From Clostridia bacterium (GTDB lineage: Bacteria; Bacillota; Clostridia; Oscillospirales; Acutalibacteraceae), in contig JAFOXT010000409.1 in assembly GCA_017425745.1 (NCBI GenBank), forward strand, positions 1 to 28,252: a stretch of DNA of 28,252 nucleotides. The letters run 5' to 3'. The first letter of the stretch is position 1, and every line of letters starts with the position of its first letter. Below the pieces are notes generated by a model. It saw nothing but the letters and a program-made list of their open reading frames with translations, ran no database searches and had not been told where the DNA came from. The position numbers and the translations under genes are program-made. Positions 5,275 to 27,879 of this stretch are shown here, piece by piece.

Positions 5275-6342
5275 TTATTTAACTTCAATTCTCCAGCCGT
5301 AGGGATCTTCCTTCTTGCCCCACTGGATACCTGTAAGTTCATCGTAAAGCTTCTGTGTGAGTTCACCGATACCGCCGTCACCGATTGTCATAACATCGTC
5401 AACATAACGAAGCTTACCAACGGGTGAAACAACTGCGGCTGTACCTGTACCCCATACTTCTTCAAGAGTACCGTCTTTTGCGGCAGCAACAAGCTCGTCA
5501 ACAGAAATTCTTCTTTCTTCTACTTCGTAGCCCCATGATTTGCAAACATGGATAATTGAGTTACGAGTGATACCGGGAAGAATGCTGCCGTTGAGCATAG
5601 GTGTAACTACCTTGCCGCCGATTTTGAAGAAGATGTTCATAGCACCTACTTCTTCGATGTACTTTCTTTCTACACCATCAAGCCAGAGTACCTGTGAATA
5701 ACCGCTGTCGTGTGCCTTAACCTGAGCAATAAGAGAAGCAGCGTAGTTACCGCCTGTCTTAGCAAAGCCCATACCACCCTTAACAGCACGAACATATTCG
5801 TCTTCAATCCAGATACCAACAGGAGCAAGACCACTTTCGTAGTAAGCACCTGAGGGTGAAAGAATTATAATGAAGAGATATGTCTTTGAGGGAGCAACAC
5901 CGAGGAATTCATCAGTTGCAATAATGAAAGGACGGATGTAGAGTGATGTACCTTCGTCTGCAGGCACCCAATCTCTGTCCACATCAACAATAGCCTTAAC
6001 AGCATCAACAAAATCATCAATAGGAAGTTCGGGGATGCAAAGTCTTTCATTGGTAGCGTTTGTTCTCTTAGCGTTCATATCAGGACGGAAAAGGTAAATC
6101 TTATCGCCTTCGCCTCTGTATGCCTTAAGACCTTCAAACATTTCCTGGCCGTAATGGAAAACCATAGCACTGGGGTCAAGTGAAAGGTTGCCGTAAGGAA
6201 CAATTCTTGCGTCATGCCAACCCTTGCCTTCAGTGTAGTTCATCATAAACATATGGTCAGTAAAAATATGACCGAAACCGAGCTTTTCGCCCTTAGCAGG
6301 CTTTGCTTTCGGAGTAGTTGTTTTGGTAATTTTGATATCCAT
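5275..6342 (-). CDS. ilvE: Branched-chain amino acid aminotransferase (fold type IV PLP enzyme)
   Basis: LGFGHIFTDHM, FHYGQEMFEGLKAY, LYIRPF, KTGGNYA, EVGAMN, ILPGITR, GTGTAAVVSP. RBS GAGGTG supports the ATG at 6342 rather than 6351. Confidence 0.96.
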   Translation of the reverse strand: MDIKITKTTTPKAKPAKGEKLGFGHIFTDHMFMMNYTEGKGWHDARIVPYGNLSLDPSAMVFHYGQEMFEGLKAYRGEGDKIYLFRPDMNAKRTNATNERLCIPELPIDDFVDAVKAIVDVDRDWVPADEGTSLYIRPFIIATDEFLGVAPSKTYLFIIILSPSGAYYESGLAPVGIWIEDEYVRAVKGGMGFAKTGGNYAASLIAQVKAHDSGYSQVLWLDGVERKYIEEVGAMNIFFKIGGKVVTPMLNGSILPGITRNSIIHVCKSWGYEVEERRISVDELVAAAKDGTLEEVWGTGTAAVVSPVGKLRYVDDVMTIGDGGIGELTQKLYDELTGIQWGKKEDPYGWRIEVK

Positions 6343-6360
6343 AATTAACACCTCAATATT

Positions 6361-6894
6361 TTAAAACTCATAACCAAGCTTAACAGCCTTAAGGTTAACA
6401 TCAATGAGATTTGCTTTTCTGGGAGGAACAACCTTTTTAACTGCGTCTTCAACCTTTGCATATCCTACATTGTCGCAAACCTTCATAAGCTTGCCCATAA
6501 GAATCATATTAGCGAGAGTTGAAAAGCCTTCATCGGTTGCAATTTTTGTTGCAGGTACATAGTAAACGTTAACATCATCTCTCTGAACCTTTTCAGAAAT
6601 AAGTGTTGAGTCAACAATAATTGTGCCGCCTGAAACAACTTCACTTTCATACTTTTTAAGTGAAGGAAGGTTCATTGCAACAAGAACATCGGGATTTGAT
6701 ACGATAGGTGAACCAACAGCTGTATCGCTGACGATTACACTGCAGTTGGCAGTACCGCCACGCATTTCCGGGCCGTATGAGGGAAGCCAGCTGATCTGCT
6801 TATCTTCGAGAAGCCCCTTATAAGCGATGAGCTTGCCTGCAAAAAGTACGCCCTGACCGCCGAAGCCTGCAATAAGAATCTGAGTTGTGCTCAT
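6361..6894 (-). CDS. 2-oxoacid:ferredoxin oxidoreductase gamma subunit (Vor-type)
   Basis: AGFGGQGV and SYGPEMRGGTA motifs, NMILMG. ATG overlaps the stop of the beta subunit. Confidence 0.92.
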   Translation of the reverse strand: MSTTQILIAGFGGQGVLFAGKLIAYKGLLEDKQISWLPSYGPEMRGGTANCSVIVSDTAVGSPIVSNPDVLVAMNLPSLKKYESEVVSGGTIIVDSTLISEKVQRDDVNVYYVPATKIATDEGFSTLANMILMGKLMKVCDNVGYAKVEDAVKKVVPPRKANLIDVNLKAVKLGYEF

Positions 6895-7649
6895 TATTCT
6901 GCCTCCTTTTCTGCATCTCTGTCCTTATAAACACCAAGAGGATAATAAGGAAGCATATTGTCTTCAAGCCACTTAAGAGCATCTACAGGGCTGAGACCCC
7001 AGTTAGTAGGACAAGTTGAAACAACTTCGATAAGTGAGAAGCCCTTCTTATCAATCTGATTCTGGAATGCCTTCTTAATAGCTTTCTTTGCGTTTTTAAC
7101 GTTCTTTACATTATTTACAGCAACTCTTTCGATGTAGCCTGCACCGTCGAGCTGTGAAAGAAGCTCTGAAACCTTAACAGGGAAACCACAGTGGTTTGTA
7201 TCTCTGCCGTAAGGTGAAGTCTGTGTCACCTGACCGGGAAGTGAAGTAGGAGCCATCTGTCCGCCTGTCATACCGTAAATTGCGTTGTTAACAAAAATTA
7301 TTGTAATATTTTCATTTCTTGCTGCTGAGTGAACAGTTTCAGCCATACCGATTGAAGCAAGGTCGCCGTCGCCCTGATATGTGAAAACAATGTGGTTGTC
7401 AGGATCAGCACGCTTAAGACCTGTTGCAACAGCAGGAGCTCTGCCGTGAGCAGCCTCAACCATATCACAGTTGAAATAGTTGTAAGCAAGAACTGAACAA
7501 CCAACAGGAGCAACACCGATTGTCTTGCCTTCAATACCAAGCTCATCGATTGCCTCGGCAACAAGACGGTGAATAATACCATGAGTACAACCGGGGCAAT
7601 AATGTAAAGGCACATCTGCAAGTGACTTGGGTTTATCAAATACTACCAT
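6894..7649 (-). CDS. 2-oxoacid:ferredoxin oxidoreductase beta (TPP-binding) subunit (Vor-type)
   Basis: HYCPGCTHG, VGCS, HGRA, TPP motif QGDGD...NN, YGMTGGQMAPT, STCPT. Confidence 0.93.
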   Translation of the reverse strand: MVVFDKPKSLADVPLHYCPGCTHGIIHRLVAEAIDELGIEGKTIGVAPVGCSVLAYNYFNCDMVEAAHGRAPAVATGLKRADPDNHIVFTYQGDGDLASIGMAETVHSAARNENITIIFVNNAIYGMTGGQMAPTSLPGQVTQTSPYGRDTNHCGFPVKVSELLSQLDGAGYIERVAVNNVKNVKNAKKAIKKAFQNQIDKKGFSLIEVVSTCPTNWGLSPVDALKWLEDNMLPYYPLGVYKDRDAEKEAE

Positions 7650-7650
7650 T

Positions 7651-8712
7651 TTATTTTCCCTCCTTGTCTACAGAAATAATGCTTTCAAGAACCTGCTCGG
7701 GAGAAGGAATCATACCGCCTACTCTGTTGCAGAGATGTACGTTTTTCTTGCAATCTGTTGCGAGTCTGATGTCTTCAATCATCTGACCCATTGAAAGCTC
7801 AACAGAAATGAATGCCTTAACCTTGTCAGCTGCCTTCTGGAAAGGAGCCTTGGGGAAGGGCCAGAGTGTGATAGGTCTGATAAGACCAACCTTGATACCC
7901 TCTTCTCTTGCTTTAACAATTGCATTTTTAGCAACTCTTGCCGCAATACCGAAAGCAACAACACAGATGTCAGCATCGTCCATCATGTACTCTTCGTACA
8001 TAGCTTCATTTTCTTCGATAGTCTTGTATCTGTCGTATCTTTCAAAATTGAGTTTTTCAAGCTCATCGGGTACAAGTGAAAGAGAGTTAATAATGTTCTT
8101 CTTTCTTTCGAGCTTTGTGCCTGTAACAGCCCATGACTTATCATAATCGTTAACCTTAACCTCTGAAAGCTCAACAGGCTCCATCATCTGACCGATTGTA
8201 CCGTCAGCAAGAATCATTGAAGTCATTCTGTACTTTTCTGCAAGGTCAAAGCCCTTGATTGTAAGGTCAGCCATTTCCTGAACTGATGAAGGTGCAAGAA
8301 CGATCATTTTGAAGTCACCGTGTCCGCCGCCCTTAGTAGCCTGGAAATAGTCAGACTGTGAGGGCTGAATGCCACCGAGACCGGGGCCGCCACGCTGTAC
8401 GTTTACAACAAGTGCAGGAAGATCTGAACCTGCCATATAAGAAAGTCCTTCAGCCTTAAGAGAAATTCCGGGGCTTGAAGATGATGTCATAACTCTTTTA
8501 CCGGTTGATGCAACACCGTAAACCATATTAATTGCAGCAACCTCACTTTCAGCCTGAAGGAAGCAGCCACCGATTTTAGGCATTTTCTTTGCCATGTAAG
8601 CAGCAATTTCAGTCTGAGGGGTAATAGGATAACCGAAGTAATGTCTGCAGCCTGCAAGAATAGCAGCTTCAGCAATGGCTTCGTTACCCTTCATAAGTAC
8701 TTTTTCAGCCAT
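7651..8712 (-). CDS. vorB: 3-methyl-2-oxobutanoate (branched-chain 2-oxoacid):ferredoxin oxidoreductase alpha subunit, VorB-like
   Basis: MKGNEAIAEAA, FGYPITPQTE, QAESEVAA, SSSPGISLK, QRGGPGLG, QPSQSDY. RBS GAGGT...GGAA supports the ATG at 8712. Vor versus Kor specificity is inferred from the short alpha subunit and context. Confidence 0.88.
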   Translation of the reverse strand: MAEKVLMKGNEAIAEAAILAGCRHYFGYPITPQTEIAAYMAKKMPKIGGCFLQAESEVAAINMVYGVASTGKRVMTSSSSPGISLKAEGLSYMAGSDLPALVVNVQRGGPGLGGIQPSQSDYFQATKGGGHGDFKMIVLAPSSVQEMADLTIKGFDLAEKYRMTSMILADGTIGQMMEPVELSEVKVNDYDKSWAVTGTKLERKKNIINSLSLVPDELEKLNFERYDRYKTIEENEAMYEEYMMDDADICVVAFGIAARVAKNAIVKAREEGIKVGLIRPITLWPFPKAPFQKAADKVKAFISVELSMGQMIEDIRLATDCKKNVHLCNRVGGMIPSPEQVLESIISVDKEGK

Positions 8713-8722
8713 TTCCTTTACC

Positions 8723-8929
8723 TCACTTTTCAACTTTAATTATGCAATCGGGACACATAGTTGCGCAGAAAGCACAAGCAATACACTGACTTTCGTCTGT
8801 GATTTTTACAGGTGTGTGACCTTTTGCATTGATTACATCTGTATCAAGCACAAGAAGCTTTTTGGGACAAGCAGCAACGCAAAGTCCGCAGCCCTTGCAC
8901 ATATCGGTTTTAAACGTCAATTTAGCCAT
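8723..8929 (-). CDS. 2x[4Fe-4S] ferredoxin, delta subunit of the oxidoreductase
   Basis: Two CxxCxxCxxxCP motifs (CKGCGLCVAACP, CIACAFCATMCP); RBS GGAGGTG. Confidence 0.93.
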   Translation of the reverse strand: MAKLTFKTDMCKGCGLCVAACPKKLLVLDTDVINAKGHTPVKITDESQCIACAFCATMCPDCIIKVEK

Positions 8930-8947: not shown

Positions 8948-9622
8948 TTAAAACTGTTTTTTCTGAAGCGTCAACGGAAAATACTCATTTCCCGATTTTT
9001 TAACAACATCATATATATTACTCTCAACCGAAGAAAAAAGCAAGGGTAAAGATGTTATTTTACAAAGTTTTTTCACTTCATTTTCTGTGGAAAATATATC
9101 CTCTTTTGTCGTTAAAGCTCCAAGATTGGAGTTGTTGACAATTGCTGTAAATTTAAGAGAGCTTACCGCTTCAATTTCTCTCATAATCTCAACAGCATCT
9201 TCAGCTGTTCTTGTAATAGGTCTGAAAAAATTAACAACGAAAATCATTTCATAATTATCTTCGCTTTTAATTGCATTTGCAAGCCTGCCGAGAACAACAG
9301 AGCCTGCATCGTCGCCGCCGATATCAAGAACTGCATAGCTGTTTTTATCATTAATAATTCTGTTAATTGTAAAAGGCAACGCAGGAATATCAAGATTGGT
9401 TGCAGCAAACTCAGAACATATGAGGTCAATCCCCTCTTCCTTCAACTCGTTTTCACTATCCTTGGAGCGGAAATATGGATTAACTATATCCAAGTCTGCA
9501 AGGGCAACCGATTTGCCGCTTTTTTTAAGCTCTTTTGCAAAATTAACTGCAATATTGGTCTTACCACTGCCGTAGTGACCTGCAAAAATCACTACTCGCT
9601 TACTGTTATCAATATATCTCAT
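8948..9622 (-). CDS. Uncharacterised P-loop ATPase of MinD/ParA/CobQ (SIMIBI)-like type
   Basis: Walker A GHYGSGKT, ADLDIVNPYFR, VLDIGGD, VNNSN. Its ATG lies 2 nt after the upstream stop (TAAttATG). Confidence 0.8.
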   Translation of the reverse strand: MRYIDNSKRVVIFAGHYGSGKTNIAVNFAKELKKSGKSVALADLDIVNPYFRSKDSENELKEEGIDLICSEFAATNLDIPALPFTINRIINDKNSYAVLDIGGDDAGSVVLGRLANAIKSEDNYEMIFVVNFFRPITRTAEDAVEIMREIEAVSSLKFTAIVNNSNLGALTTKEDIFSTENEVKKLCKITSLPLLFSSVESNIYDVVKKSGNEYFPLTLQKKQF

Positions 9623-9624
9623 AA

Positions 9625-11886
9625 TTACAGCTTGTTTCTCTGAATCTTGCCGCTGATTGTTTTGGGAAGCTCATCACGGAAGACTACTATTCTGGGATAT
9701 TTATAAGGAGCGGTATTCTTCTTAACATAGTTCTGAATTTCTTTCTTAAGCTCTTCTGTCGGTTCAGTACCCTTTGTGAGAACAATACTTGCTTTTACAA
9801 CCTGACCTCTCATATCATCAGGAGCAGCAGAAACACCGCATTCAAGAACATAAGGAAGCTCCATGATTACGTTTTCAATTTCAAAGGGTCCTATACGGTA
9901 GCCTGATGACTTAATAACATCATCGATACGGCTTACATACCAATAGTAACCGTCTTCATCGCACCAAGCAGTATCACCTGTATGATACATACCGTCATAC
10001 CATACTTCGTTTGTCTTTTCATCATCATTGTAGTAGCCCTTGAAAAGACCGCAAGGAATCTTCTTATCAGTTCTTACAACAATTTCACCTGTTTCACCAA
10101 CAGCACATTCTTTTCCGTCGGGATCAACAATTGCAATATCATAGCAGGGAACGGGCTTACCCATAGCGCCCGGCTTAGGTATTGTTCCTGCAAGGTTAGC
10201 GATTGTAAGGGTTGTTTCGGTTTGGCCGAAGCCTTCCATAATTACAATGCCTGTAGCCTTTTCAAATTGATAGAACACTTCAGGATTAAGAGCTTCACCT
10301 GCAGTTGTTGCATATCTGATTGAAGAAAGATCATATTTTGAAAGATCCTCCTTGATAAGCATTCTGTACATTGTGGGAGGAGCACAGAATGTTGTGATAT
10401 GATACTTAGCAAACATAGGAAGAATTTCAGAAGCATTAAATCTGTCAAAGTCAAATGTAAATACTGCACCTTCACACATCCACTGACCGTAGAACTTGCC
10501 CCACATTGCCTTACCCCAACCTGTGTCGGAAATTGTAAGGTGAAGGTCGCTGGGCTGAATTGTGTGCCAGTATCTTGCTGTTATAAAGTGACCGAGAGCA
10601 TACTTAAATGAGTGTGCAGCAATCTTCGGATATCCTGTTGTGCCTGAAGTGAAGAACATAAGCATTGTATCATCACCGCAGGCTGTATCCTCAGTACGGG
10701 CATAAATACTTCTGAAAAGCTTATATTCAGTATCGAAATTATGCCAGCCCTCTCTGTCAGCACCGACAATAATCTTATATTCAAGCGCACCGTAGGTTGC
10801 GGCAGCCCTATCAATGTGGTCAGCAACAGCGCCGTCTGCAGTACAGACAATAGCCTTGACACCCGCAGCCTTAAAGCGATATTCAAAATCGTGCTCTACG
10901 AGCTGATTTGTTGCAGGAATAATTACTGCACCGATTTTGTGAAGAGCAAGAGCAGTAATCCAGAACTGATAGTGACGCTTAAGCACAAGCATTACTCTGT
11001 CGCCCTTTTTGATGCCGAGAGAAAGGAAGTAGTTGGCTGCACGGGCAGATTCCTTTTTCATATCCTTATAGGTGAATCTTCTTTCCGTCTTGTCATTTGA
11101 AATATGAAGCATTGCAAGCTTATCGGGATATTTATCGGCAACAGCATCAACGATATCAAAAGCAAAGTTAAAACTGTCCTCATTTTTGTAATCGAGCTTT
11201 TTAAGAACACCGTTTTCATCCTCTTCGGCTACTATGAACTTTTTCACCTCAAGGTTATGCTCAGCCTTTGCTGTTACAAAGGTTTTTTCAATATCCTTTG
11301 TGTCTGCCTTTTCGTCGTCAGAGATAACAACTGCAAGGAAGGTGCAGTCCTCACCGTCAACGGCAATCATACCGTGAGGTGACGAGCTCTTGTAATAGAT
11401 GCTGTCACCTTCTTCAAGAATTTCCGTGTGGTTACCAACACGCACCTTGAGCTTACCTGAAAGAACGATATCGAACTCCTGACCGCCGTGGGTAATTGTA
11501 TGAATGGGCTTATTCTGAAGCTCTTCTCTGTATTCATATTTTGCAAGATAGGGCTCAGCAAGCTTCTTTCTGAACAAAGGTGCAAGGTTATTGATTTCAA
11601 TTCCGTCTTCCTTTGACGTAATTTTACCCTGACCCTTTCTTGTAACGGTATAAGATGAAAGGTTGCTGCTTTTACCTTCAAGAAGGTCAGTCTTACCAAT
11701 ACCGAAAGCCTTTGCACATTTGTGGATAAACGAAAAAGGAAAATCTACTGTGCCTAATTCATATTCACAGTACTGCTCAACAGTAATGTCTGTTTTTGCA
11801 GCCATTTCCTCAACGCTGAATCCACACACCTCACGCATTTCTTTAATTCGTGATGCAACCTCCATAAGTTGATTGTTCATTTCCAT
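9625..11886 (-). CDS. Fusion: XRE-type HTH + cupin regulator domain + medium/branched-chain acyl-CoA synthetase (Methanosarcina AAE/MACS-like)
   Basis: Residues ~1-70 are HTH (RIKEMREVCGFSVEEMA...YELG) and ~110-190 are cupin (THGGQEF...GDSIYYKSSSPH). Then NFAFDIVD, FTSGTTGYPK, SDTGWGKAMWGKFYGQW, EGFGQTET, YHTGD and PKTISGK, closely recalling the M. acetivorans acyl-adenylating enzyme. Confidence 0.9.
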   Translation of the reverse strand: MEMNNQLMEVASRIKEMREVCGFSVEEMAAKTDITVEQYCEYELGTVDFPFSFIHKCAKAFGIGKTDLLEGKSSNLSSYTVTRKGQGKITSKEDGIEINNLAPLFRKKLAEPYLAKYEYREELQNKPIHTITHGGQEFDIVLSGKLKVRVGNHTEILEEGDSIYYKSSSPHGMIAVDGEDCTFLAVVISDDEKADTKDIEKTFVTAKAEHNLEVKKFIVAEEDENGVLKKLDYKNEDSFNFAFDIVDAVADKYPDKLAMLHISNDKTERRFTYKDMKKESARAANYFLSLGIKKGDRVMLVLKRHYQFWITALALHKIGAVIIPATNQLVEHDFEYRFKAAGVKAIVCTADGAVADHIDRAAATYGALEYKIIVGADREGWHNFDTEYKLFRSIYARTEDTACGDDTMLMFFTSGTTGYPKIAAHSFKYALGHFITARYWHTIQPSDLHLTISDTGWGKAMWGKFYGQWMCEGAVFTFDFDRFNASEILPMFAKYHITTFCAPPTMYRMLIKEDLSKYDLSSIRYATTAGEALNPEVFYQFEKATGIVIMEGFGQTETTLTIANLAGTIPKPGAMGKPVPCYDIAIVDPDGKECAVGETGEIVVRTDKKIPCGLFKGYYNDDEKTNEVWYDGMYHTGDTAWCDEDGYYWYVSRIDDVIKSSGYRIGPFEIENVIMELPYVLECGVSAAPDDMRGQVVKASIVLTKGTEPTEELKKEIQNYVKKNTAPYKYPRIVVFRDELPKTISGKIQRNKL

Positions 11887-11913: not shown

Positions 11914-11954
11914 AAAAAAAAATAAACCCGTCTCAAGATAATCCTGAGACGAGT
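11914..11954 (-). terminator. Terminator of the Ile T-box leader
   Basis: ACTCGTCTCAGGA-tta-TCTTGAGACGGGT followed by TTATTTTTTTTT. Confidence 0.92.
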
Positions 11955-12200
11955 AAAATAACTATACCCGCGGTACCACTCAAATTGCGAATTAACCGCC
12001 ACCTTCAAGCTCTGACAAGCTCTATGCACTAACGTAGCATTCACGAAAGACATCTACTTGCTTAAAGCTTTCGGGTCTTCAGCTCAGAAGTGATAGGATA
12101 ATGAAAACTTGCAATACCGACTTTACACCACCGTCGGCTCTCTGAAAAAGCTTATTTTCGTCCGTCTTCGTCACAGCTTTTGTTGAAATATTGAAATGTT
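11914..12200 (-). promoter_or_regulatory. T-box riboswitch leader, Ile specifier (AUC), transcriptional type
   Basis: Stem I with TGTGA K-turn strand, AGAGA and GGTG motifs. Specifier loop tcct-ATC-A-cttc (ATC at 12092-12094). Stem II AGTA/GAA, F-box-like ACGTTA, T-box AATTTGAGTGGTACCGCGG (11969-11987). Antiterminator GAG-UGGUACC-GCGGGUA..UACUCGU-CUC competes with the terminator. Confidence 0.92.
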
Positions 12201-12266: not shown

Positions 12267-13073
12267 TCAGGGCAGTCTGATATCAAATAGCTCAGCAGCA
12301 TTTTCGTAATAAATTTTTCTGTATTCTTCATCACCAAGCTTCAGAGCTTCAAGATATTCATATTCGTCTTTATAGGACCACATTGGAAAATCTGTTCCGA
12401 ATATTACCTTATCGGCACCGTATTTTTCTATTATTTCCTTTGCTTTTTCCTTTTTAAGCCAATGAAAGCTTGACGAAGTATCAACATAGAAATTCTTGCA
12501 GCCGCTGAGCACATCAGAGGCTTCTTCCCACACTGACCAACCTCCGAAATGTGCGCCGATAACAGTGAGCTCAGGGAATCTTTCAAGAACATCTGCCATT
12601 CTATCCGGATTTGAGAAATCATATCTGTAATCACCTGTATGAAGAAGCACCGGTAGCTCTGCTTCACTGCACGCCTTATAAATAGAAAACAGTCTTTCAT
12701 CATTAATTCTGAATTTCTGAAAATCCGGATGAAGCTTAACACCCTTAAGACCGAGAGCTTTAATATTTTCTATTTCTGAAGCTACATTTTCAGTGTCGGG
12801 ATGGAGAGCTCCGAGCCCTGTGAATCTCCCCTCGCCCTCCTTGACACAGTTTGAAATAAAGCTGTTTATAGAGCCTACCTGATGCGGTGTTGTCGCAACC
12901 GAAAATATAATGTTGTGACAAACGCCTATTTGATTTCCTTTTTCAATAAGTGTTGAAGCCTTACCGTCATAGCACATCGGCAAATCATAGAAGCTGCCTA
13001 TACCTTCAACTGCCTTTTCCGCAATCTTATCAGGATAAATATGACAGTGAGAGTCAATAATAGGATATTGCAT
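12267..13073 (-). CDS. Amidohydrolase_2 family metallo-hydrolase of unknown substrate
   Basis: IDSHCH, GVKLHP, VLLHTG, GAHFGG, YVDTS, IFGTDFP. RBS GGGAG supports the ATG at 13073 (MQYP) rather than 13088. Confidence 0.88.
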   Translation of the reverse strand: MQYPIIDSHCHIYPDKIAEKAVEGIGSFYDLPMCYDGKASTLIEKGNQIGVCHNIIFSVATTPHQVGSINSFISNCVKEGEGRFTGLGALHPDTENVASEIENIKALGLKGVKLHPDFQKFRINDERLFSIYKACSEAELPVLLHTGDYRYDFSNPDRMADVLERFPELTVIGAHFGGWSVWEEASDVLSGCKNFYVDTSSSFHWLKKEKAKEIIEKYGADKVIFGTDFPMWSYKDEYEYLEALKLGDEEYRKIYYENAAELFDIRLP

Positions 13074-13087
13074 CTTAGTTACTCCCA

Positions 13088-15607
13088 TTATGCTGTTTCA
13101 ACTGAGTCGGCCTTCTGAAGTCCGTATCTCTTTACTGCATCTTCTCTCATCTGATACTTAAGAATCTTGCCTGCAGCATTCATCGGGAATGAATCAACAA
13201 AATCAACGTATCTGGGCACCTTATGCTTAGCCATATGGTCTCTTACGAATTGCTTCATTTCATCAACTGTCATGCTTTCGCCTTCCTTGAGAATGATGCA
13301 TGCAGCAATTTCTTCACCGTACTGCTCGTCAGGCACACCAATAACCTGAACGTCGCTTACCTTGGGATGAGTGTAGATAAACTCTTCAATTTCCTTGGGA
13401 TAAATGTTTTCACCACCGCGGATAATCATATCCTTAAGTCGACCTGTGATTTTGTAGTTACCGTCTTCTGTCTTGCAAGCAAGGTCACCGGTATGAAGCC
13501 AACCGTCTTTATCAATTGCAGAAGCAGTTGCCTTGGGCATCTTATAATAACCCTTCATTATGTTGTAGCCGCGTGCTACGAATTCACCGATTTCACCAAC
13601 AGGTAAATCTTCACCGGTTTCAGGGTCAACAATTTTACATTCAATTTCAGGAAGTGCTCTGCCGACTGTTGATACACGAACTTCAATGGGGTCGTCAGTT
13701 GAACTCATTGTGCATCCGGGAGAAGCCTCTGTCTGTCCGTAAACGATTGTGATTTCGCTCATATGCATCTTTTCAACAACGTCTTTCATTGTTGCGATAG
13801 GACAAGGTGAACCCGCCATAATACCTGTTCTCATATGTGAGAAGTCGGTCTTTTCAAAATCGGGATGCTCAAGCATTGCAATAAACATTGTAGGAACGCC
13901 ATGGAAAGCAGTAATTTTTTCTTGATTTACACATGCAAGTGACGGCTTCGGAGTAAAGTAAGGCAACGGATAAAGTGTTGCGCCATGAGTCATTGAAGCG
14001 GTCATTGCAAGAACCATACCGAAGCAATGGAACATAGGAACCTGAATCATCATTCTGTCTGCAGTTGAAAGATCCATTCTGTCACCGATACACTTACCGT
14101 TATTTACAACGTTATAATGTGTAAGCATAACGCCCTTGGGGAAGCCTGTTGTACCTGATGTATACTGCATATTACATACATCGTTGGGGTCAACTGTAGC
14201 TGCAATTCTGTAAACCTCTTCAAGAGGTACATTTTCACTTCTTTCAATTGCTTCTTCCCAAGTAAGACAGCCCTTCTTTTTAAAGCCTACAGTAATTACA
14301 TTTCTGAGGAAAGGAAGTCTGTGGCAATGAAGCGGCTGACCGGGCTTTGTAGTTTCAAGCTCAGGACAAAGCTCACCAACAATGTCAGCATAATGTGAAT
14401 CACGGTAGCCTTCAACAAGAATAAGTGTATGTGTGTCTGACTGCTTGAGAAGGTATTCAAGCTCGTGAATTTTATAAGCTGTGTTAACTGTTACAAGAAC
14501 TGCACCGATTTTTGTTGCAGCCCAGAATGCAATATACCACTGAGGAATGTTTGTAGCCCATACTGCAACGTGACTTCCGGGCTTAACGCCGAGAGCAAGG
14601 AAAGCTCTGCAGCATTCATCTACATCGTCACGGAATTCAGCATATGTTCTTGTATAATCAAGGGTTGTGTATTTGAAAGCATACTGGTCAGGGAATTCCT
14701 CAACCATTTTATCAAGCACCTGAGAGAAGGTTTTATCGATAAGTGCTTCTTTCTTCCATACAAATCTGCCGTCGCCTTTTTTATTTCTGTAAAGGTGATT
14801 TTTCTTTCTCGACGGAGCCTGGAATTTCTGCATATACTGTGAAAAATGTGAGAATATTACATCAATTTCAGTAAAATCTTCCATCCATAAAGGATTCCAT
14901 TCAAGTGAAATGTAACCGCTGTAATTTACTGATGAAAGAGCATTGATAACACTTTCAACAGGAAGCTCGCCTTCACCGATAAGACAGTACTGTCTTTCGC
15001 CGTCTACAATATGAGAATCCTTGATATGAACATGCTTGACAAAAGCACCGAGGTTTGTAATTGTAACGTCAGTTTCTTCGCCCTGCTCACAGAAGGTGTG
15101 ATAAACGTCCCACAAAGCTGCAACGGAATCACAAGCAAAGTTCATAAGAACATCGCGAAGCTTTGTTGTATCTGAGAACATACCGCAGGTTTCAATAAGA
15201 ACGGTAACATTCTTTGTTTCAGCATAGCTTACAAATTTGTCAAGACAGCTGATAACATTCTCAGTTGCATTTTCATTTTTACCTGATGCGTATACTCTTA
15301 CATAAGGTACATTAATACCTGCAGCAAAATCAATACATTCCTTGATATGTTCAGCGTTTTCATCAATTTTGTCTGATGAAATATCAACACTTATGTCAAA
15401 GCAAGGTACAGAAATGCCGTTATCTCTGAGCTCACGCATTGTAGCAACAGAGTTATACTGATGGAAAGGTCCGTTCTTTTCAACAAGGTCAGAACCGATT
15501 ACATTATGAAGTTCAATACCTGTAAAGAAATTTTCCTTGGCGAGCTCAACAAAATCGTTCCAGGAATAATCCTTCCATCCGTTTATTGAAAAAGAAAGCT
15601 TCATCAT
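13088..15607 (-). CDS. Fusion: xylose-isomerase-like/AP-endonuclease-2 TIM barrel + acyl-CoA synthetase (AMP-forming)
   Basis: N-terminal ~265 aa with metal-site motifs VLIET, WDVYH, HVHIKD and ISLEW. C-terminal ~550 aa with QYTSGTTGFPKGVMLTH, YGQTE, LHTGD, RLKDMIIRGGENIYP and PMNAAGK. RBS GAGGAGG. Confidence 0.88.
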   Translation of the reverse strand: MMKLSFSINGWKDYSWNDFVELAKENFFTGIELHNVIGSDLVEKNGPFHQYNSVATMRELRDNGISVPCFDISVDISSDKIDENAEHIKECIDFAAGINVPYVRVYASGKNENATENVISCLDKFVSYAETKNVTVLIETCGMFSDTTKLRDVLMNFACDSVAALWDVYHTFCEQGEETDVTITNLGAFVKHVHIKDSHIVDGERQYCLIGEGELPVESVINALSSVNYSGYISLEWNPLWMEDFTEIDVIFSHFSQYMQKFQAPSRKKNHLYRNKKGDGRFVWKKEALIDKTFSQVLDKMVEEFPDQYAFKYTTLDYTRTYAEFRDDVDECCRAFLALGVKPGSHVAVWATNIPQWYIAFWAATKIGAVLVTVNTAYKIHELEYLLKQSDTHTLILVEGYRDSHYADIVGELCPELETTKPGQPLHCHRLPFLRNVITVGFKKKGCLTWEEAIERSENVPLEEVYRIAATVDPNDVCNMQYTSGTTGFPKGVMLTHYNVVNNGKCIGDRMDLSTADRMMIQVPMFHCFGMVLAMTASMTHGATLYPLPYFTPKPSLACVNQEKITAFHGVPTMFIAMLEHPDFEKTDFSHMRTGIMAGSPCPIATMKDVVEKMHMSEITIVYGQTEASPGCTMSSTDDPIEVRVSTVGRALPEIECKIVDPETGEDLPVGEIGEFVARGYNIMKGYYKMPKATASAIDKDGWLHTGDLACKTEDGNYKITGRLKDMIIRGGENIYPKEIEEFIYTHPKVSDVQVIGVPDEQYGEEIAACIILKEGESMTVDEMKQFVRDHMAKHKVPRYVDFVDSFPMNAAGKILKYQMREDAVKRYGLQKADSVETA

Positions 15608-15610
15608 AAT

Positions 15611-17023
15611 TTATGCCTCCTCGTATACAATCTTGTTTACAGCGTTAAGATAAGCTCTGATGCTGGCGCCGATAATGTCGGTTGAAATACCCTTGCCTGA
15701 GTAGAGCTTTCCGTCGCTGCGAAGCTTAACAAGAGCTGAGCCCATAGCTTCACGGCCTTCAGTTACTGACTGAATCTGGAAATCATCAAGCTCATAATGT
15801 CTGCCGATAATCTGCTCAATTGCAAGGAAAGCAGCATCGATGGGGCCGTCACCGTTTGAAAGACCGCTGATTTTTTCGTCGTTCTTTCTGAGGGTAATAT
15901 TTGCAGTTGCTGAAATAACATTACCGCTGTTAATTACATATGATTCAATGAAATAAGTTGTGGGCACCTGCATTGCAGCTGAAGCAATAATCGCATCAAG
16001 CTCCTTAGCACCAACAGTTTTGTTACGGCTTACACGCTTGAAAGCCTCAAACACCTTTGAAATATCTTCCTGTGAAAGATCATAGCCGAGACCCTTTACA
16101 GCCTTAGAAACTGCAGTTATATCATCGTGATCATTAAGCACGAGATCGCTTGCAACACTACCTACACCAAAATCAAAAGCTGAATTCTTACTCTTCTTTG
16201 AATTTGCAATCCAATCAATCTGCTTTGAAATTCTGCCGAATTCTGTCATTCTGATTGATGTGTCAACACTGAGCTCATCACTGTGAATTCTGACTGCCTT
16301 ACAAACAGGTTCAAGGTTAGCAGATTCACTGCCGTTAATTGATGAAACCTTAATTTCTCTTACACCTGATTTAATTGCAGAAATACAGCATGCGCATGAC
16401 ATATTAACCTCGTCACTGCACTGAATACCTACTGTTACATCAGCAACTGCAGGTACTGCACTGTAAATATCATCAATAAAGGTTGAAATTTCGTCTGCAA
16501 GCATAGTGCCGGCTGTATCGCTGAGAGTTACAACTGAAGCGCCTGCAGCAACAGCAGTATCAATTGCTTTATAAAGGAAGTCTGCTTCACTTCTTGTAGC
16601 ATCGTCAGCAACAAACTCAACTTCAAAGCCAAGTGCTTTAGCCTTTGAAACAAGCTCCTTAATCATTTCAAGAACCATAGGAGGCTTTTTCTTGCAGATA
16701 TATTCCATCTGTACTGTTGAGGTAGGTACAACAATCTGAATTCTTGCTTTAACAGCCTCTTTAAGTGCATCAGCAACTCTTTCAACATCCTGCTCAGCAA
16801 GATTTACGGGCACAGCAATAACGCTGTGCTTTACGCATGAAGCAATTGACTTTATAAGAAGAACATCTGTTGTCTCCTTTACAATTGCAGGAAGCTCGAT
16901 TACAGAAACATTCACTTTGTCGAGAAGCTTAGCAATTTCAATCTTCTCTCTGAATGAAAGTGAATAATCCGCACCCTTAGCTGCTTGTTTTAAAGTAATG
17001 TCAGCAATTGATAATTTTTCCAT
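15611..17023 (-). CDS. 2-isopropylmalate synthase (LeuA) homolog with degenerate catalytic site and intact C-terminal regulatory domain
   Basis: LeuA-like barrel (EFVADDATRS, SDTAG) and regulatory domain (GDGPIDAAF, TEGREAMG, STDIIGAS). DTTLRDGEQ reads DITLKQAAK and HCHND reads QCSDE. RBS AAGGAG supports the ATG at 17023 (470 aa). Confidence 0.85.
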   Translation of the reverse strand: MEKLSIADITLKQAAKGADYSLSFREKIEIAKLLDKVNVSVIELPAIVKETTDVLLIKSIASCVKHSVIAVPVNLAEQDVERVADALKEAVKARIQIVVPTSTVQMEYICKKKPPMVLEMIKELVSKAKALGFEVEFVADDATRSEADFLYKAIDTAVAAGASVVTLSDTAGTMLADEISTFIDDIYSAVPAVADVTVGIQCSDEVNMSCACCISAIKSGVREIKVSSINGSESANLEPVCKAVRIHSDELSVDTSIRMTEFGRISKQIDWIANSKKSKNSAFDFGVGSVASDLVLNDHDDITAVSKAVKGLGYDLSQEDISKVFEAFKRVSRNKTVGAKELDAIIASAAMQVPTTYFIESYVINSGNVISATANITLRKNDEKISGLSNGDGPIDAAFLAIEQIIGRHYELDDFQIQSVTEGREAMGSALVKLRSDGKLYSGKGISTDIIGASIRAYLNAVNKIVYEEA

Positions 17024-17073
17024 TTTAAAAACTCCTTTTACATTTTTTAGATGATCTGAAGAGTATAACAAAG

Positions 17074-17374: not shown

Positions 17375-17403
17375 ATTTTAACACATTAAACCGTAAATGT
17401 CAA
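17375..17403 (-). promoter_or_regulatory. Sigma-A promoter of the Leu T-box operon
   Basis: TTGACA (17398-17403), 17 bp, TAAAAT (17375-17380) with extended TG. Confidence 0.85.
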
Positions 17404-24065: not shown

Positions 24066-24959
24066 TTAAAGACCTGTCTTTTCTCTGATGTAGTTTCTTG
24101 CGAGAACTGCATATTCATAGGGATTAGCCTTTGCAGGATCCTGCTCAGCTTCAACAACAACCCAACCTTCGTAGCCTGCTTCGTCGAGAATATCAAAAAC
24201 AGGAGTGAAGTCGAAGTCACCGTCACCGGGAACAGTAAATGAACCTGCTCTTACTGAATCAAGGAAGCTGTATCCCTTAACCTTTGCATCTTCGATTACA
24301 TCCTTACGGATGCTCTTAAGGTGAACGTGCTTAACTCTGTTTACATACTTTTTAAGTACGCCGAGAACGTCTTCACCACTGAATGAAAGATGACCTGTAT
24401 CGAAAAGAAGGTAAACAAGGTCAGGATCAGTGATTTCCATAAGCTTGTCAATTTCTTCAGCTGTCTGAACACCTGTACCCATATGATGATGAACTGTGAA
24501 GTACATACCCTTTTCTTTAGCAAGCTCACCCATCTTGTTGAAGCCTTTTCTGATGAGTTCCCACTGTTCGTCAGTGTAAACGGGCTTTTCACCGAAGATG
24601 CTTACGTCCTTACCCTGAATGCTGTTACCCTGCTCTGAAGCACCGATAACCTTTGCACCGAGAGCGTGAAGAAAATCTCTGTGCTTGATGAAAGCTTCGA
24701 TTGTTGCATCATAACCCTCTGAAAGAAGAAGCGAGGAGAACCACGCATTACAGATTCTCATACCTCTTACGTCAAGCTTGTGCTTAAGAGTTCCAACATC
24801 TTTGGGATATTTGTTACCGATTTCGCTGCCTGTAAAGCCTGCAAGAGCCATTTCACTTACACACTGTTCAAATGTGTTTTCAGCACCGAGATCGGGAAGG
24901 TCGTCGTTTGTCCACGCGATAGGAGCGCAGGCAAGATATACTTTTTCTTTGTTAAGCAT
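24066..24959 (-). CDS. iolE: myo-inosose-2 dehydratase
   Basis: [46 protein letters not shown]. Confidence 0.96.
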
Positions 24960-24977
24960 TGTTATTTCTCCTTAGAA

Positions 24978-26825
24978 TTAATATAAACGTGCCTTTTCAA
25001 TATTTTCTTTCATTTCTTCGTAGCACTTCTGAACTGTTTCGCTTTCTGAAACCTCAGCAACGCCAACTCTCCACCATGAATCATAGCCGTCTGTCATTGA
25101 CTTGTGAGCTACCTTGATATCAAAAAGAGTTGAAACAGTCTGTTTCTTTGAATCTTCAAGTGCTGCGTAAAGCTCTTCTGCGTTAGTTACGCGATAAGCC
25201 TTACAGCCGTAGCCTTCAGCAATTTTAGCATAATCAGTATAAATGATTTCACCGTCAAGAAGACCGCTCTGTTCGTTTCTTCTTGTAAATCTTGTACCGA
25301 ATGTATCAGTACCCTGATTATTCTGAAGGTTTTCAATGCAACCCCAACCGCTATTGTCAAAGAGCATTACATTGATTTTCTTGTCTTCCTGAATAGCTGT
25401 ATAGAGCTCACTGTGAAGCATAAGGAAGCTGCCGTCACCTACCATTGAATAAACCTCTTTGTCGGGACAAGCAAGCTTTGCACCAAGTGCACCGCAGATT
25501 TCATAGCCCATGCATGAGAAACCGTATTCAACGTGGTATGTATTCGGAGCTTTTGACTTCCAGATTCTCTGAAGACAACCGGGAAGTGAGCCTGATGAAC
25601 CGATAATAACTGAATCATCAGCAACAACCTCATTGATGATACCGAGTGCTCTCATCTGTGAGAAGCCTTCAGCAGGCTCATCGTTGTAGCAACGGTCGAT
25701 TTCTGCGAAGAAATCAGCCTGTGCCTTTGCATATTCGCTATTCCATTCTGATTTATAAGCTCCGAGCTTTGCGCCGATTGCATCGATACCCATTTTAGCA
25801 TCGGCAATAACAGCTGTGCTGTCCATCTTGAATGCGTCAAATGAGCAAACATTGATTGAAAGCATTTTTACGTCGGGATTCTGGAAGCCCCATTTTGAGC
25901 AGGTTGTAAAGTCAGTAAGTCTTGTACCAACTGCAATAATAAGGTCTGCTCTCTTTGCGATATAGTTAGCTGAAGCGGTACCTGTTACACCGCAACCACC
26001 CATATTGAGATGATGAGCAAAGGGAATCTGACCCTTACCTGCCTGTGTTTCGCCGATAGGAATATCGTACTTTTCAGCAAATTTAAGCACTGCTTCGTAG
26101 GAATCTGAATATGTAACGCCGCCACCAACAACAATCATCGGCTTCTTAGCGTTTTTAATAAGCTCAGCCGCTGCTTCGATTTCTCTTTCTGAGGGTACCT
26201 TTCTGTCCATGTACCAAACTCTCTTCTGAAGGAAGTAATCGGGATAATCAAAAGCTTCAGCTTCAACATCCTGAGGCATTGCAATACAAACTGCACCCGT
26301 ATCAGCTGCGTCTGTAAGAACTCTCATAGCATTAATCATAGCAGTCATAAGCTGTTCGGGACGCTGAATTCTGTCCCAATATTTGCACACTGCCTTGAAT
26401 GCGTCGTTAGCAGTAATTGCACAGCTGTCATACTGTTCAATCTGCTGAAGAACGGGGTCGGGCTGACGGCAGGCAAAGGTATCACCGGGAAGCACAAGAA
26501 GAGGAATTCTGTTTGCAGTTGCAGTACCGCAGGCAGTTACCATATTAAGTGCACCGGGGCCGATTGATGAAGTGCAAGCAATAATCTTGCGACGCTTATT
26601 CTGCTTTGCATAAGCAATTGCAGAATGTGCCATACCCTGCTCATTATGACCCTGATAATATCTGAGGCTGTGTCCGCCCTGTTCAAGTGCCTGACCGATA
26701 CCAACTACACAACCGTGACCGAAAATTCCGAAAATACCGTCAACGAATTTTGTTTCTTTTCCATCAAAGCTGATGTACTGATTATCAAGGAACTTAACAA
26801 GAGCTTGCGCCATAGTAAGTTTCAT
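24978..26825 (-). CDS. iolD: 3D-(3,5/4)-trihydroxycyclohexane-1,2-dione acylhydrolase (decyclizing)
   Basis: LTMAQALVKFLDNQY, GIFGHG, HNEQGMAH, SIGPGA, QPDPVLQQ, EYGFSCMGYE, TPP motif GDGSFLMLHSEL. Confidence 0.96.
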   Translation of the reverse strand: MKLTMAQALVKFLDNQYISFDGKETKFVDGIFGIFGHGCVVGIGQALEQGGHSLRYYQGHNEQGMAHSAIAYAKQNKRRKIIACTSSIGPGALNMVTACGTATANRIPLLVLPGDTFACRQPDPVLQQIEQYDSCAITANDAFKAVCKYWDRIQRPEQLMTAMINAMRVLTDAADTGAVCIAMPQDVEAEAFDYPDYFLQKRVWYMDRKVPSEREIEAAAELIKNAKKPMIVVGGGVTYSDSYEAVLKFAEKYDIPIGETQAGKGQIPFAHHLNMGGCGVTGTASANYIAKRADLIIAVGTRLTDFTTCSKWGFQNPDVKMLSINVCSFDAFKMDSTAVIADAKMGIDAIGAKLGAYKSEWNSEYAKAQADFFAEIDRCYNDEPAEGFSQMRALGIINEVVADDSVIIGSSGSLPGCLQRIWKSKAPNTYHVEYGFSCMGYEICGALGAKLACPDKEVYSMVGDGSFLMLHSELYTAIQEDKKINVMLFDNSGWGCIENLQNNQGTDTFGTRFTRRNEQSGLLDGEIIYTDYAKIAEGYGCKAYRVTNAEELYAALEDSKKQTVSTLFDIKVAHKSMTDGYDSWWRVGVAEVSESETVQKCYEEMKENIEKARLY

Positions 26826-26865
26826 AGTTGTTTAATCCTTTCTTCGTTAAAATTAAGGGAAGAAA

Positions 26866-27879
26866 TTACATAATTTCTGAAATCTTAACAGGTCTGCCTT
26901 CCTTAACTGATTTCTTAGCTGCGAGAGCAACAAGGATTGAATTGAGACCGTCAACACCTGTTGTGGGTGTTTCTTTATCGTTAAGAACAGCATCAACAAA
27001 CTGAACCATTTCGTCACGGAATGACTGCATATATCTTTCAAGGAAGAAATAGAGAGGCTTGTCTGTTGTAACGCCTTCAGCATTCATAATTGTAACATTT
27101 GTGGGTGTGTCGTTTGCAGCCATTGCAGCACCCTTTGAGCCGAATACTTCGATTCTCTGGTCGTAACCGTAAGCAGCACGGCGGCTGTTGTCAATAACAC
27201 CGAGAGCACCGTTTTCAAACTTAAGGTTGATAATTGCTGTATCAACATCACCTGCTTCACCGATTGCGGGATCAACAAGGCATGTTGCACTTGCATAAAC
27301 TTCTGTTACATCGCTGCCTGCAAGGAAACGAGCCATATCAAAATCATGGATTGTCATATCAAGGAACATACCGCCTGATACTGCAGCGTATTCTGCCGGA
27401 GGAGGCTCGGGGTCACGTGAAGTAATCTTGATAAGCTCAAGGTTACCAACCTTACCTTCGTTGATAAGTGAACGAACGTGTGAGAAGTTGTGGTCAAAAC
27501 GTCTGTTGAAACCAACCTGAAGCTTAACGCCTGCTTCAGCAACTGCGTCGATTACAGCCTGAACCTTTTCAGGTGTAAGGTCAACGGGCTTTTCACAGAA
27601 AACGTGCTTGCCAGCCTTAGCTGCTTCAATTGAAATATCAGCGTGTGTATCTGTTGATGAGCATACAAGAACTGCATCGATATCCTTATCAGCGAGCATT
27701 TCTTTGTAATCGTCATAAACCTTTTCGATACCGTATTTATCAGCAAGCTCCTGAAGACCGTCTTTGAAAACGTCTGTAATACCAAGAACCTTTGCTGTAG
27801 GAACATTGTATGTAATTGACTGCATGTGTACCTTACCGATACGTCCGGCACCGATGATGCCGATGTTTAACTGTTTCAT
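26866..27879 (-). CDS. iolG: myo-inositol 2-dehydrogenase (Gfo/Idh/MocA family)
   Basis: IGIIGAGRIG, CEKP, GFNRRFD, ITSRDP, DMTIHDFD, YGYDQRIE. RBS GGAGG. Confidence 0.93.
   Translation of the reverse strand: MKQLNIGIIGAGRIGKVHMQSITYNVPTAKVLGITDVFKDGLQELADKYGIEKVYDDYKEMLADKDIDAVLVCSSTDTHADISIEAAKAGKHVFCEKPVDLTPEKVQAVIDAVAEAGVKLQVGFNRRFDHNFSHVRSLINEGKVGNLELIKITSRDPEPPPAEYAAVSGGMFLDMTIHDFDMARFLAGSDVTEVYASATCLVDPAIGEAGDVDTAIINLKFENGALGVIDNSRRAAYGYDQRIEVFGSKGAAMAANDTPTNVTIMNAEGVTTDKPLYFFLERYMQSFRDEMVQFVDAVLNDKETPTTGVDGLNSILVALAAKKSVKEGRPVKISEIM

Follow-up and report, generated by a model that had tools for sequence, protein, structure and literature searches.

The locus analysed here raises the question of what a metal-dependent, isomerase-type barrel is doing on the same polypeptide as an acyl-CoA synthetase, and of how that polypeptide relates to leucine. 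The window, by which we mean the whole stretch of 28,252 nucleotides (positions 1–28,252 of contig JAFOXT010000409.1, assembly GCA_017425745.1) of a Clostridia bacterium of the Acutalibacteraceae, carries on its minus strand (15607..13088) a single open reading frame (ORF) of 839 residues that translates without a stop. An earlier note on this DNA had described such a frame, without giving its strand, as holding a complete E/DxxH/HxKD/E metal site and all adenylation motifs, and translation, Pfam matches and motif positions bear this out. Judging from sequence, we consider it probable that in the window's clade the protein acts as an isovalerate-activating ligase, with the barrel as a non-catalytic accessory module.

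Architecture, integrity and history of the fusion

Pfam places an AP_endonuc_2/xylose-isomerase-like TIM barrel (PF01261) at residues 23–238 (86.6 bits against a gathering cut-off of 31.1), an AMP-binding domain (PF00501) at residues 300–688 (312.2 against 29.9) and an AMP-binding_C domain (PF13193) at residues 739–814 (70 against 24.5). Residues 1–260 (14828..15607) form the barrel, as defined by Pfam, motifs, an AlphaFold2 (AF2) model and Foldseek, with a metal tetrad of E139, D167, H194 and E236 accompanied by H170 and D197. Residues 291–839 and the stop codon (13088..14737), defined by Pfam and motifs, form an acyl-CoA synthetase of the ANL superfamily. The intervening linker, residues 261–290 (14738..14827), has neither stop nor indel and bears the semi-conserved motif L272-Y273-x-N275...G280...W284-x-K286. 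The ATG is preceded, at a distance of 8 nt, by a GGAGG ribosome-binding site that falls within the 3′ end of an upstream gene for a LeuA-like protein.

A fusion of this kind could arise on paper from an assembly or annotation error in which the stop codon between two genes was lost, and the earlier note had singled out the junction at around 14750–14830 for this reason. Nothing was found in favour of this explanation, to which we give next to no probability. The same three-domain architecture occurs in all 120 best matches in a large protein collection, the junction is in frame at all 12 loci read directly, and gut-metagenome contigs from two independent studies (covering 14645–15607 and 14666–14950) cross it with zero indels. 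Internal stops first flagged in the fusions of some relatives proved to be their terminal stops. An artefact or lost stop is ruled out by these observations together with the presence of the fusion in 80 of the 201 genomes described below. Contigs of two bovine-gut metatranscriptome libraries also match parts of both halves at 90–99% identity; such contigs are compatible with expression of the gene and cannot prove its transcription or regulation.

Distribution was assessed in 201 genomes sampled evenly across the order, all with a completeness of 90% or more, which provides the count of fused and split versions that the earlier note had proposed: 80 genomes carry the fusion, 37 an unfused orthologue of the ligase and 84 neither. 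The fusion was also counted in 33 of 41 genomes of relatives, so that its absence from relatives, which the earlier note had said would refute its reading, is not observed. The closest relatives of the window's copy are metagenome-assembled genomes of Acutalibacteraceae from faeces and rumen. The two-domain fusion is thus a widespread, uncharacterised protein of gut and rumen Clostridia, found in about 40% of the genomes sampled from this major gut order. It is also as unusual as first supposed: family, structure and literature searches turned up no description of it, whether as a curated family, in a solved structure or in print. A precedent for fusion of such a barrel to a second enzyme is PDB 5hmq, where a xylose-isomerase-like barrel is joined to a 4-hydroxyphenylpyruvate-dioxygenase-like domain, although partner domain and pathway both differ from those of the window fusion.

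The split versions give the fusion a history. Where the ligase is unfused (37 genomes), a solo orthologue of the barrel accompanies it in 32, in 7 of these 32 directly downstream of the ligase gene; of the 84 genomes lacking the ligase, only one has such a barrel. Barrel and ligase were therefore already partners before they fused, and the barrel is by descent a free-standing metal-dependent partner enzyme. Since the order is ligase then barrel when the genes are adjacent, and barrel then ligase when they are fused, the fusion is not a simple read-through; a barrel sometimes encoded just 3′ of the ligase would later have been placed in front of it. The neighbourhoods of solo barrels at three loci showed no coherent pathway (an aminotransferase, a GNAT protein, EutH and a 2-hydroxyacid dehydrogenase). 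A remoter fused form (L046, 161–2632) has 33% identity in the barrel and 47% in the ligase, a different linker and the full set of six site residues; its reading frame remains open in the 5′ direction as far as the contig end.

The ligase half and its link to leucine

All core motifs of the ANL superfamily are present in the fusion: YTSGTTG (482), YGQTE (623), TGD (706), GRLKD (722) and GKI (813). Across 140 fused homologues the corresponding A3 (YTSGTTGxPKG), A5 (YGxTE), A7 (TGD), A8 hinge (GRxKD) and A10 lysine (GKI) motifs are 93–100% conserved, so that by Pfam and by core motifs this half belongs with the AMP-forming acyl-CoA synthetases. In the same 140 proteins 23% of ligase columns are invariant and 3% of barrel columns. 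The best explanation is that the catalytic part of the polypeptide under selection would be the C-terminal acyl-CoA synthetase.

The nearest curated model is PRK12583 (NF009233), with which the ligase half aligns over positions 12–555 of 558, its adenylation and thioesterification motifs complete; the scores (721.7 and 723.1 bits) lie below the membership cut-off of 832. Ligases of this type, which we take to be the ACSF2/YngI group, differ from the fusion in having neither its 280-residue N-terminal barrel nor its leucine T-box control, and we know of no member that serves amino-acid synthesis. A proposed functional analogue is MbcS of Staphylococcus aureus, a branched short-chain acyl-CoA synthetase that feeds fatty-acid synthesis (PMC10026030, PMC11167679). 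MbcS is likewise AMP-forming and has as its substrates branched short-chain acids that the cell takes up from its surroundings, but it belongs to another ANL subfamily and has no fused barrel, and the MbcS model best fits a neighbouring ligase of the window and not the fusion.

Leucine control, which the earlier note had assigned to the gene, is upheld by a T-box leader (RF00230, 17103..17342, minus strand) that scores 119.4 bits against a gathering threshold of 93, has the leucine specifier CUC and comes with a terminator hairpin (17111–17080). It is preceded by a TG-extended, promoter-like TTGACA-17-TAAAAT (17375..17403, minus strand) with 11 of 12 consensus matches. The fusion is the second gene behind this leader, and the genes of the operon all lie on the minus strand. 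At six of six loci (the window, L017, L019, L020, L029 and L041) a CUC T-box immediately precedes either the fusion or its LeuA-like neighbour, and in the families of two of these loci the fusion is monocistronic behind it.

The genome around the operon points the same way. A search of the genome that carries the window (91% complete) brought up no leuA, leuB or leuCD and only an aconitase-type hydratase, an NADP isocitrate dehydrogenase and an oxaloacetate decarboxylase, and the organism appears to be without the isopropylmalate pathway. Of the 80 fusions in the sampled genomes, 48 immediately follow a LeuA-like gene, and in this group leuB exceeds its cut-off in 3 of 48 genomes (missing in 45). 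The corresponding figures are 20 of 32 for fusions without the LeuA-like gene, 20 of 37 for genomes with an unfused ligase and 68 of 84 for those with no ligase orthologue, the last two groups together making 88 of 121 genomes without the fusion. VorB, a subunit of the VOR-type 2-oxoacid:ferredoxin oxidoreductase, is above cut-off in all five fusion genomes tested that lack the LeuA-like gene.

Anaerobes of the rumen and gut have long been known, from labelling physiology, to build leucine, isoleucine and valine out of branched short-chain fatty acids. The only way known to us of making leucine from an acyl-CoA starts with isovaleryl-CoA, which a VOR-type enzyme carboxylates reductively before the product is transaminated, and it is for this reason that isovalerate is the likeliest substrate of the ligase. 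As far as we are aware the genes of the rumen route have never been assigned, and we found no paper on genes for isovalerate carboxylation. The gene set that accompanies the fusion (ligase, VOR-type oxidoreductase and the aminotransferase IlvE) and its gut and rumen origin fit that route, although the route requires no barrel, inactive LeuA or amidohydrolase such as the window's operon contains. In our model uncharged tRNA-Leu would release transcription through the CUC T-box; the ligase would convert isovalerate, ATP and CoA to isovaleryl-CoA; the adjacent oxidoreductase would carboxylate this to 4-methyl-2-oxopentanoate; and IlvE would then yield leucine. The proposal that the ligase activates isovalerate for leucine synthesis, already advanced in the earlier note, is supported as the best inference by the linkage to a second branched-acid ligase, VOR and IlvE and by the pattern of missing leu genes. 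The fusion protein is the best candidate for the entry step to leucine from branched acids in gut and rumen anaerobes.

Alternatively, the ligase may act on another acid, such as isocaproate, a 2-hydroxy or 2-oxo acid or short- and medium-chain acids in general, and its link with leucine may be indirect. PRK12583 is a generic 'fatty acid CoA ligase family' model, and even its cut-off is not reached; the cluster already has a second, MbcS-like ligase; and the occurrence of leuB in the 20 of 32 fusion genomes without the LeuA-like gene means that the fusion does not simply replace the isopropylmalate pathway. We nevertheless regard another acid as unlikely, given the CUC T-box at every one of the six loci, the near-absence of leuB wherever the operon has its LeuA-linked form, and the presence of VorB in the five LeuA-less genomes alongside a sole known route that uses isovaleryl-CoA.

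Two selective regimes of the barrel

If the ligase half is an isovalerate-CoA ligase, the role of the barrel must be sought in its site and in the way that site has evolved. The motifs named in the earlier note are all present: E139 (LIETCG), D167-x-x-H170 (WDVYH), H194-x-K196-D197 (HVHIKD) and E236 (SLEW), so that the Glu/Asp/His/Glu tetrad is complete in the window protein. In the AF2 model (50 homologues, pLDDT 96.8) these residues lie at the C-terminal ends of strands 135–139, 162–167, 190–195 and 232–235. Foldseek neighbours (TM-score 0.75–0.81, probability 1.0) include the isomerase Art22 (8z1i/9koj), the 3-dehydroshikimate dehydratase AsbF (3dx5), IolI (1i60), UlaE and ketose 3-epimerases, with which the barrel shares its fold and the positions of the E/D/H/E metal site. 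Sequence identity to them is just 12–20%, however, and in the window's clade, unlike in these enzymes, the site is not kept among orthologues. Enzymes of this family normally carry out a metal-assisted enolisation of an anionic substrate.

An assignment of the barrel to a named enzyme was dropped. None of the NCBIfam equivalogs (IolE, IolO, FrlC, hydroxypyruvate isomerase, 2-oxo-tetronate isomerase and L-ribulose-5-P 3-epimerase) exceeded its cut-off, the best scores being far below it (IolO 48 of 300 bits, FrlC 36 of 305, Hyi 36 of 353); Foldseek yielded generic family members; a PDB sequence search gave weak matches, the best being Art22 (E 4e-6), on which the literature held nothing usable; and an annotation look-up with a homologue returned 'sugar phosphate isomerase/epimerase' and nothing more specific. 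The window's genuine IolE is a separate gene (24066–24959, 394 bits). It belongs to a myo-inositol catabolism set on the minus strand (24066–27879), with IolD (935 bits) and IolG (492 bits) also above cut-off, and is unrelated to the fusion barrel (BLASTP E 0.007).

Across all fused orthologues the metal tetrad is not conserved as expected of a working enzyme, being altered in 68 of 140 homologues. Two regimes emerge when the site is read in 74 fusions of known gene context. Among the 28 without an upstream LeuA-like gene the E-D-H-H-D-E hexad is intact in every case. Of the 46 with that gene, only 5 retain the full hexad and 15 the tetrad, which is altered in the other 31. In a ligase-only tree rooted with unfused ligases, the fusions linked to LeuA fall together in a single clade (SH-aLRT 96), and the six site positions have undergone at least 46 changes over a subtree length of 9.29 in this clade and none over 5.42 in the LeuA-less clade, where equal rates would give about 27. 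The rate at which the two halves diverge tells the same story. Synonymous divergence (dS) exceeds 1 and is saturated in every pair, so that only ratios of non-synonymous divergence (dN) were used; barrel dN is 4–8 times ligase dN in the window's clade, 5–6 times even among congeners, and 1.7 times in the LeuA-less pair L017–L019. Barrel dN still remains far below dS and the domain is never truncated, from which it follows that the fold is still under selection. By these measures the active site in the window's clade appears to have been released from selection while the fold has been kept, and in the LeuA-less sister clade the site is strictly conserved.

The window copy belongs to the LeuA-linked clade. 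It and its closest relatives (82–91% identity) keep the full E/D/H/H/D/E set, and a sister group at 80–82% identity to the window fusion has K139 and D236. Four further residues, R34, H169, R173 and K239, are conserved in 100% of the LeuA-less clade and in 65–88% of solo barrels; the window barrel has H34, Y169, C173 and P239 instead, although R104 and K196 are retained. Its metal site is therefore complete but the ancestral pocket is not intact. The description of the barrel as catalytically intact holds for the metal site of this copy and fails for the four lost pocket residues. Likewise, the possibility foreseen in the earlier note that the barrel would prove inactive and unconserved is borne out in part: the site is unconserved in the window's clade, but the window copy keeps its metal ligands and the LeuA-less clade is intact throughout.

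An intact-looking barrel had suggested a second catalytic step, in which an active metal-dependent isomerase, epimerase or dehydratase would make the substrate of the ligase or process or repair its product. Such a bifunctional enzyme would account for the complete set of metal-site residues kept by the window copy and its closest kin, for the well-formed AF2 barrel with ligands at canonical strand ends and for the barrel's ancestry as a working partner enzyme of the ligase; an apparently intact enzyme of the Amidohydro_2 family, translationally coupled downstream, is also in keeping with it. We give it some chance in the window but do not think it likely. The same operon form persists in many relatives that carry K139, N167, R/K194 or A/V/D236, the window barrel has lost the residues that are conserved where selection acts, the divergence of the barrel far outpaces that of the ligase even among congeners, and we know of no leucine-related substrate for this class of enzyme. 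The site changes and dN ratios given above do not support the step from an intact appearance to a second reaction.

The barrel might instead aid the adenylation chemistry, as a hydrolase of pyrophosphate or of mis-activated acyl-adenylates, for example, with no part in chemistry on the carbon skeleton. PF01261 also holds the phosphodiesterase endonuclease IV, the six acidic and histidine residues could hold two metals, and the five basic residues kept in ancestral forms (R34, R104, R173, K196 and K239) fit an anionic ligand; in addition, the barrel co-occurs tightly with the ligase and has no other conserved partner. We think this very unlikely, however. There is no precedent for it, the structural neighbours are sugar and cyclitol isomerases, epimerases and dehydratases and not phosphatases, and it leaves unexplained that the site became dispensable in one clade.

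We therefore return to an isovalerate-CoA ligase with an accessory barrel. As the metal ligands survive in the window copy and the ancestral pocket residues are lost, the barrel is likely not a second step of the pathway. Its role is most likely structural, regulatory or otherwise accessory, in the manner of a scaffold, and possibly that of a docking surface for the LeuA-like protein. A bolder extension, to which we attach only a rather small probability, is that the LeuA-like protein, predicted to be inactive yet with its leucine-binding regulatory domain kept, and the decaying fused barrel together would enclose the isovalerate-CoA ligase in a leucine-sensing shell, with the intact barrels of the sister clade catalysing an undescribed reaction on a second leucine precursor. 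If so, leucine would control salvage by feedback on the proteins themselves in addition to its control through the T-box.

Several observations weigh against the accessory-module reading and its isovalerate substrate. Isovalerate is deduced solely from the T-box specifier, the neighbouring genes and the absence of leuB. VOR and IlvE stand behind a separate isoleucine T-box and may therefore not be induced by leucine starvation. The barrel is under purifying selection and never deleted, which a purely vestigial domain does not explain, and the hexad retained in the window copy and its nearest kin means that activity of this copy is possible. LeuA-linked and LeuA-less fusions parted in a single phylogenetic event, which leaves one independent pair and a test without power. 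With one change of LeuA adjacency on the whole tree, the difference between them is one evolutionary contrast and not a statistical association, and it does not demonstrate a causal link to the inactive LeuA or to the loss of leuB. The root of the ligase tree, moreover, depends on long outgroup branches. With these reservations, the barrel offers a natural experiment in the loss of catalysis by a fused partner, conserved strictly in one clade and free to change in a sister clade that also gained the apparently inactive LeuA and lost leuB. The contrast points to variants worth comparing for the barrel's original reaction and for its present role.

Operon and neighbouring genes

The first gene behind the leucine T-box (15611..17071, minus strand) encodes the LeuA-like protein, an HMGL-like barrel followed by a LeuA_dimer regulatory domain. 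Its score of 309.7 bits falls below the 532 required of a 2-isopropylmalate synthase and its metal ligands are gone (RDGEQ reads KQAAK and HxH reads QCS), so that the protein is predicted to be catalytically dead. It looks like a relic of a real leuA, kept after loss of the pathway, and in 48 of the 49 sampled genomes that have the gene it lies directly upstream of the fusion.

The gene downstream of the fusion (12267..13088, minus strand) is translationally coupled to it, its start overlapping the fusion's stop (TAATG). The encoded Amidohydro_2 protein has metal motifs (HxH/H/H/D) conserved in seven orthologues, and the closest relative with a solved structure is BB4693 (3irs, E 2e-16), itself uncharacterised. 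Many LeuA-linked operons include the gene and some do not; the LeuA-less operons examined all lack it. A substitution of the amidohydrolase for barrel catalysis was considered and ruled out, because the most degenerate barrels (ENGRDA type) have no such gene nearby.

Beyond it a second T-box leader (11942..12183, minus strand), with the isoleucine specifier AUC, scores 78.8 bits and, being below the Rfam gathering threshold of 93, is overlooked by a default scan. Its promoter (12235–12207) matches that of the leucine leader in both hexamers, in spacing and in the TG extension, and a terminator follows at 11954–11926. The genes behind it form a second module: a helix-turn-helix (HTH)–cupin–acyl-CoA synthetase fusion (9625..11886), a CbiA/ParA-like P-loop protein assigned by domain match (8948..9622), the alpha (VorB-type), beta and gamma subunits of the 2-oxoacid:ferredoxin oxidoreductase (6361..8733; alpha 552.9 bits, above cut-off) and the branched-chain amino acid aminotransferase IlvE (5275..6351; 501.7 bits, above cut-off), all on the minus strand. 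The first of these is a single ORF of 753 residues, comprising an XRE-type HTH, a cupin and an MbcS-like acyl-CoA synthetase, a fusion kept in relatives; MbcS is its best model, at 441 bits and below the cut-off of 850. Two tandem copies of this gene occur at one locus (L026). In most relatives the P-loop gene is conserved (50–64% identity) in the same place, with the second ligase on one side and the VOR genes on the other; its product matches no NCBIfam model.

The leucine module and this second module are neighbours, with a gene order that varies between families. At one locus (L018, 18711–18952, genome G028) a single T-box with an apparent valine specifier, GUA, heads the whole cluster and there is no separate leucine leader; the second ligase, the P-loop protein, Vor, IlvE, the LeuA-like protein, the fusion and the amidohydrolase follow it in that order.

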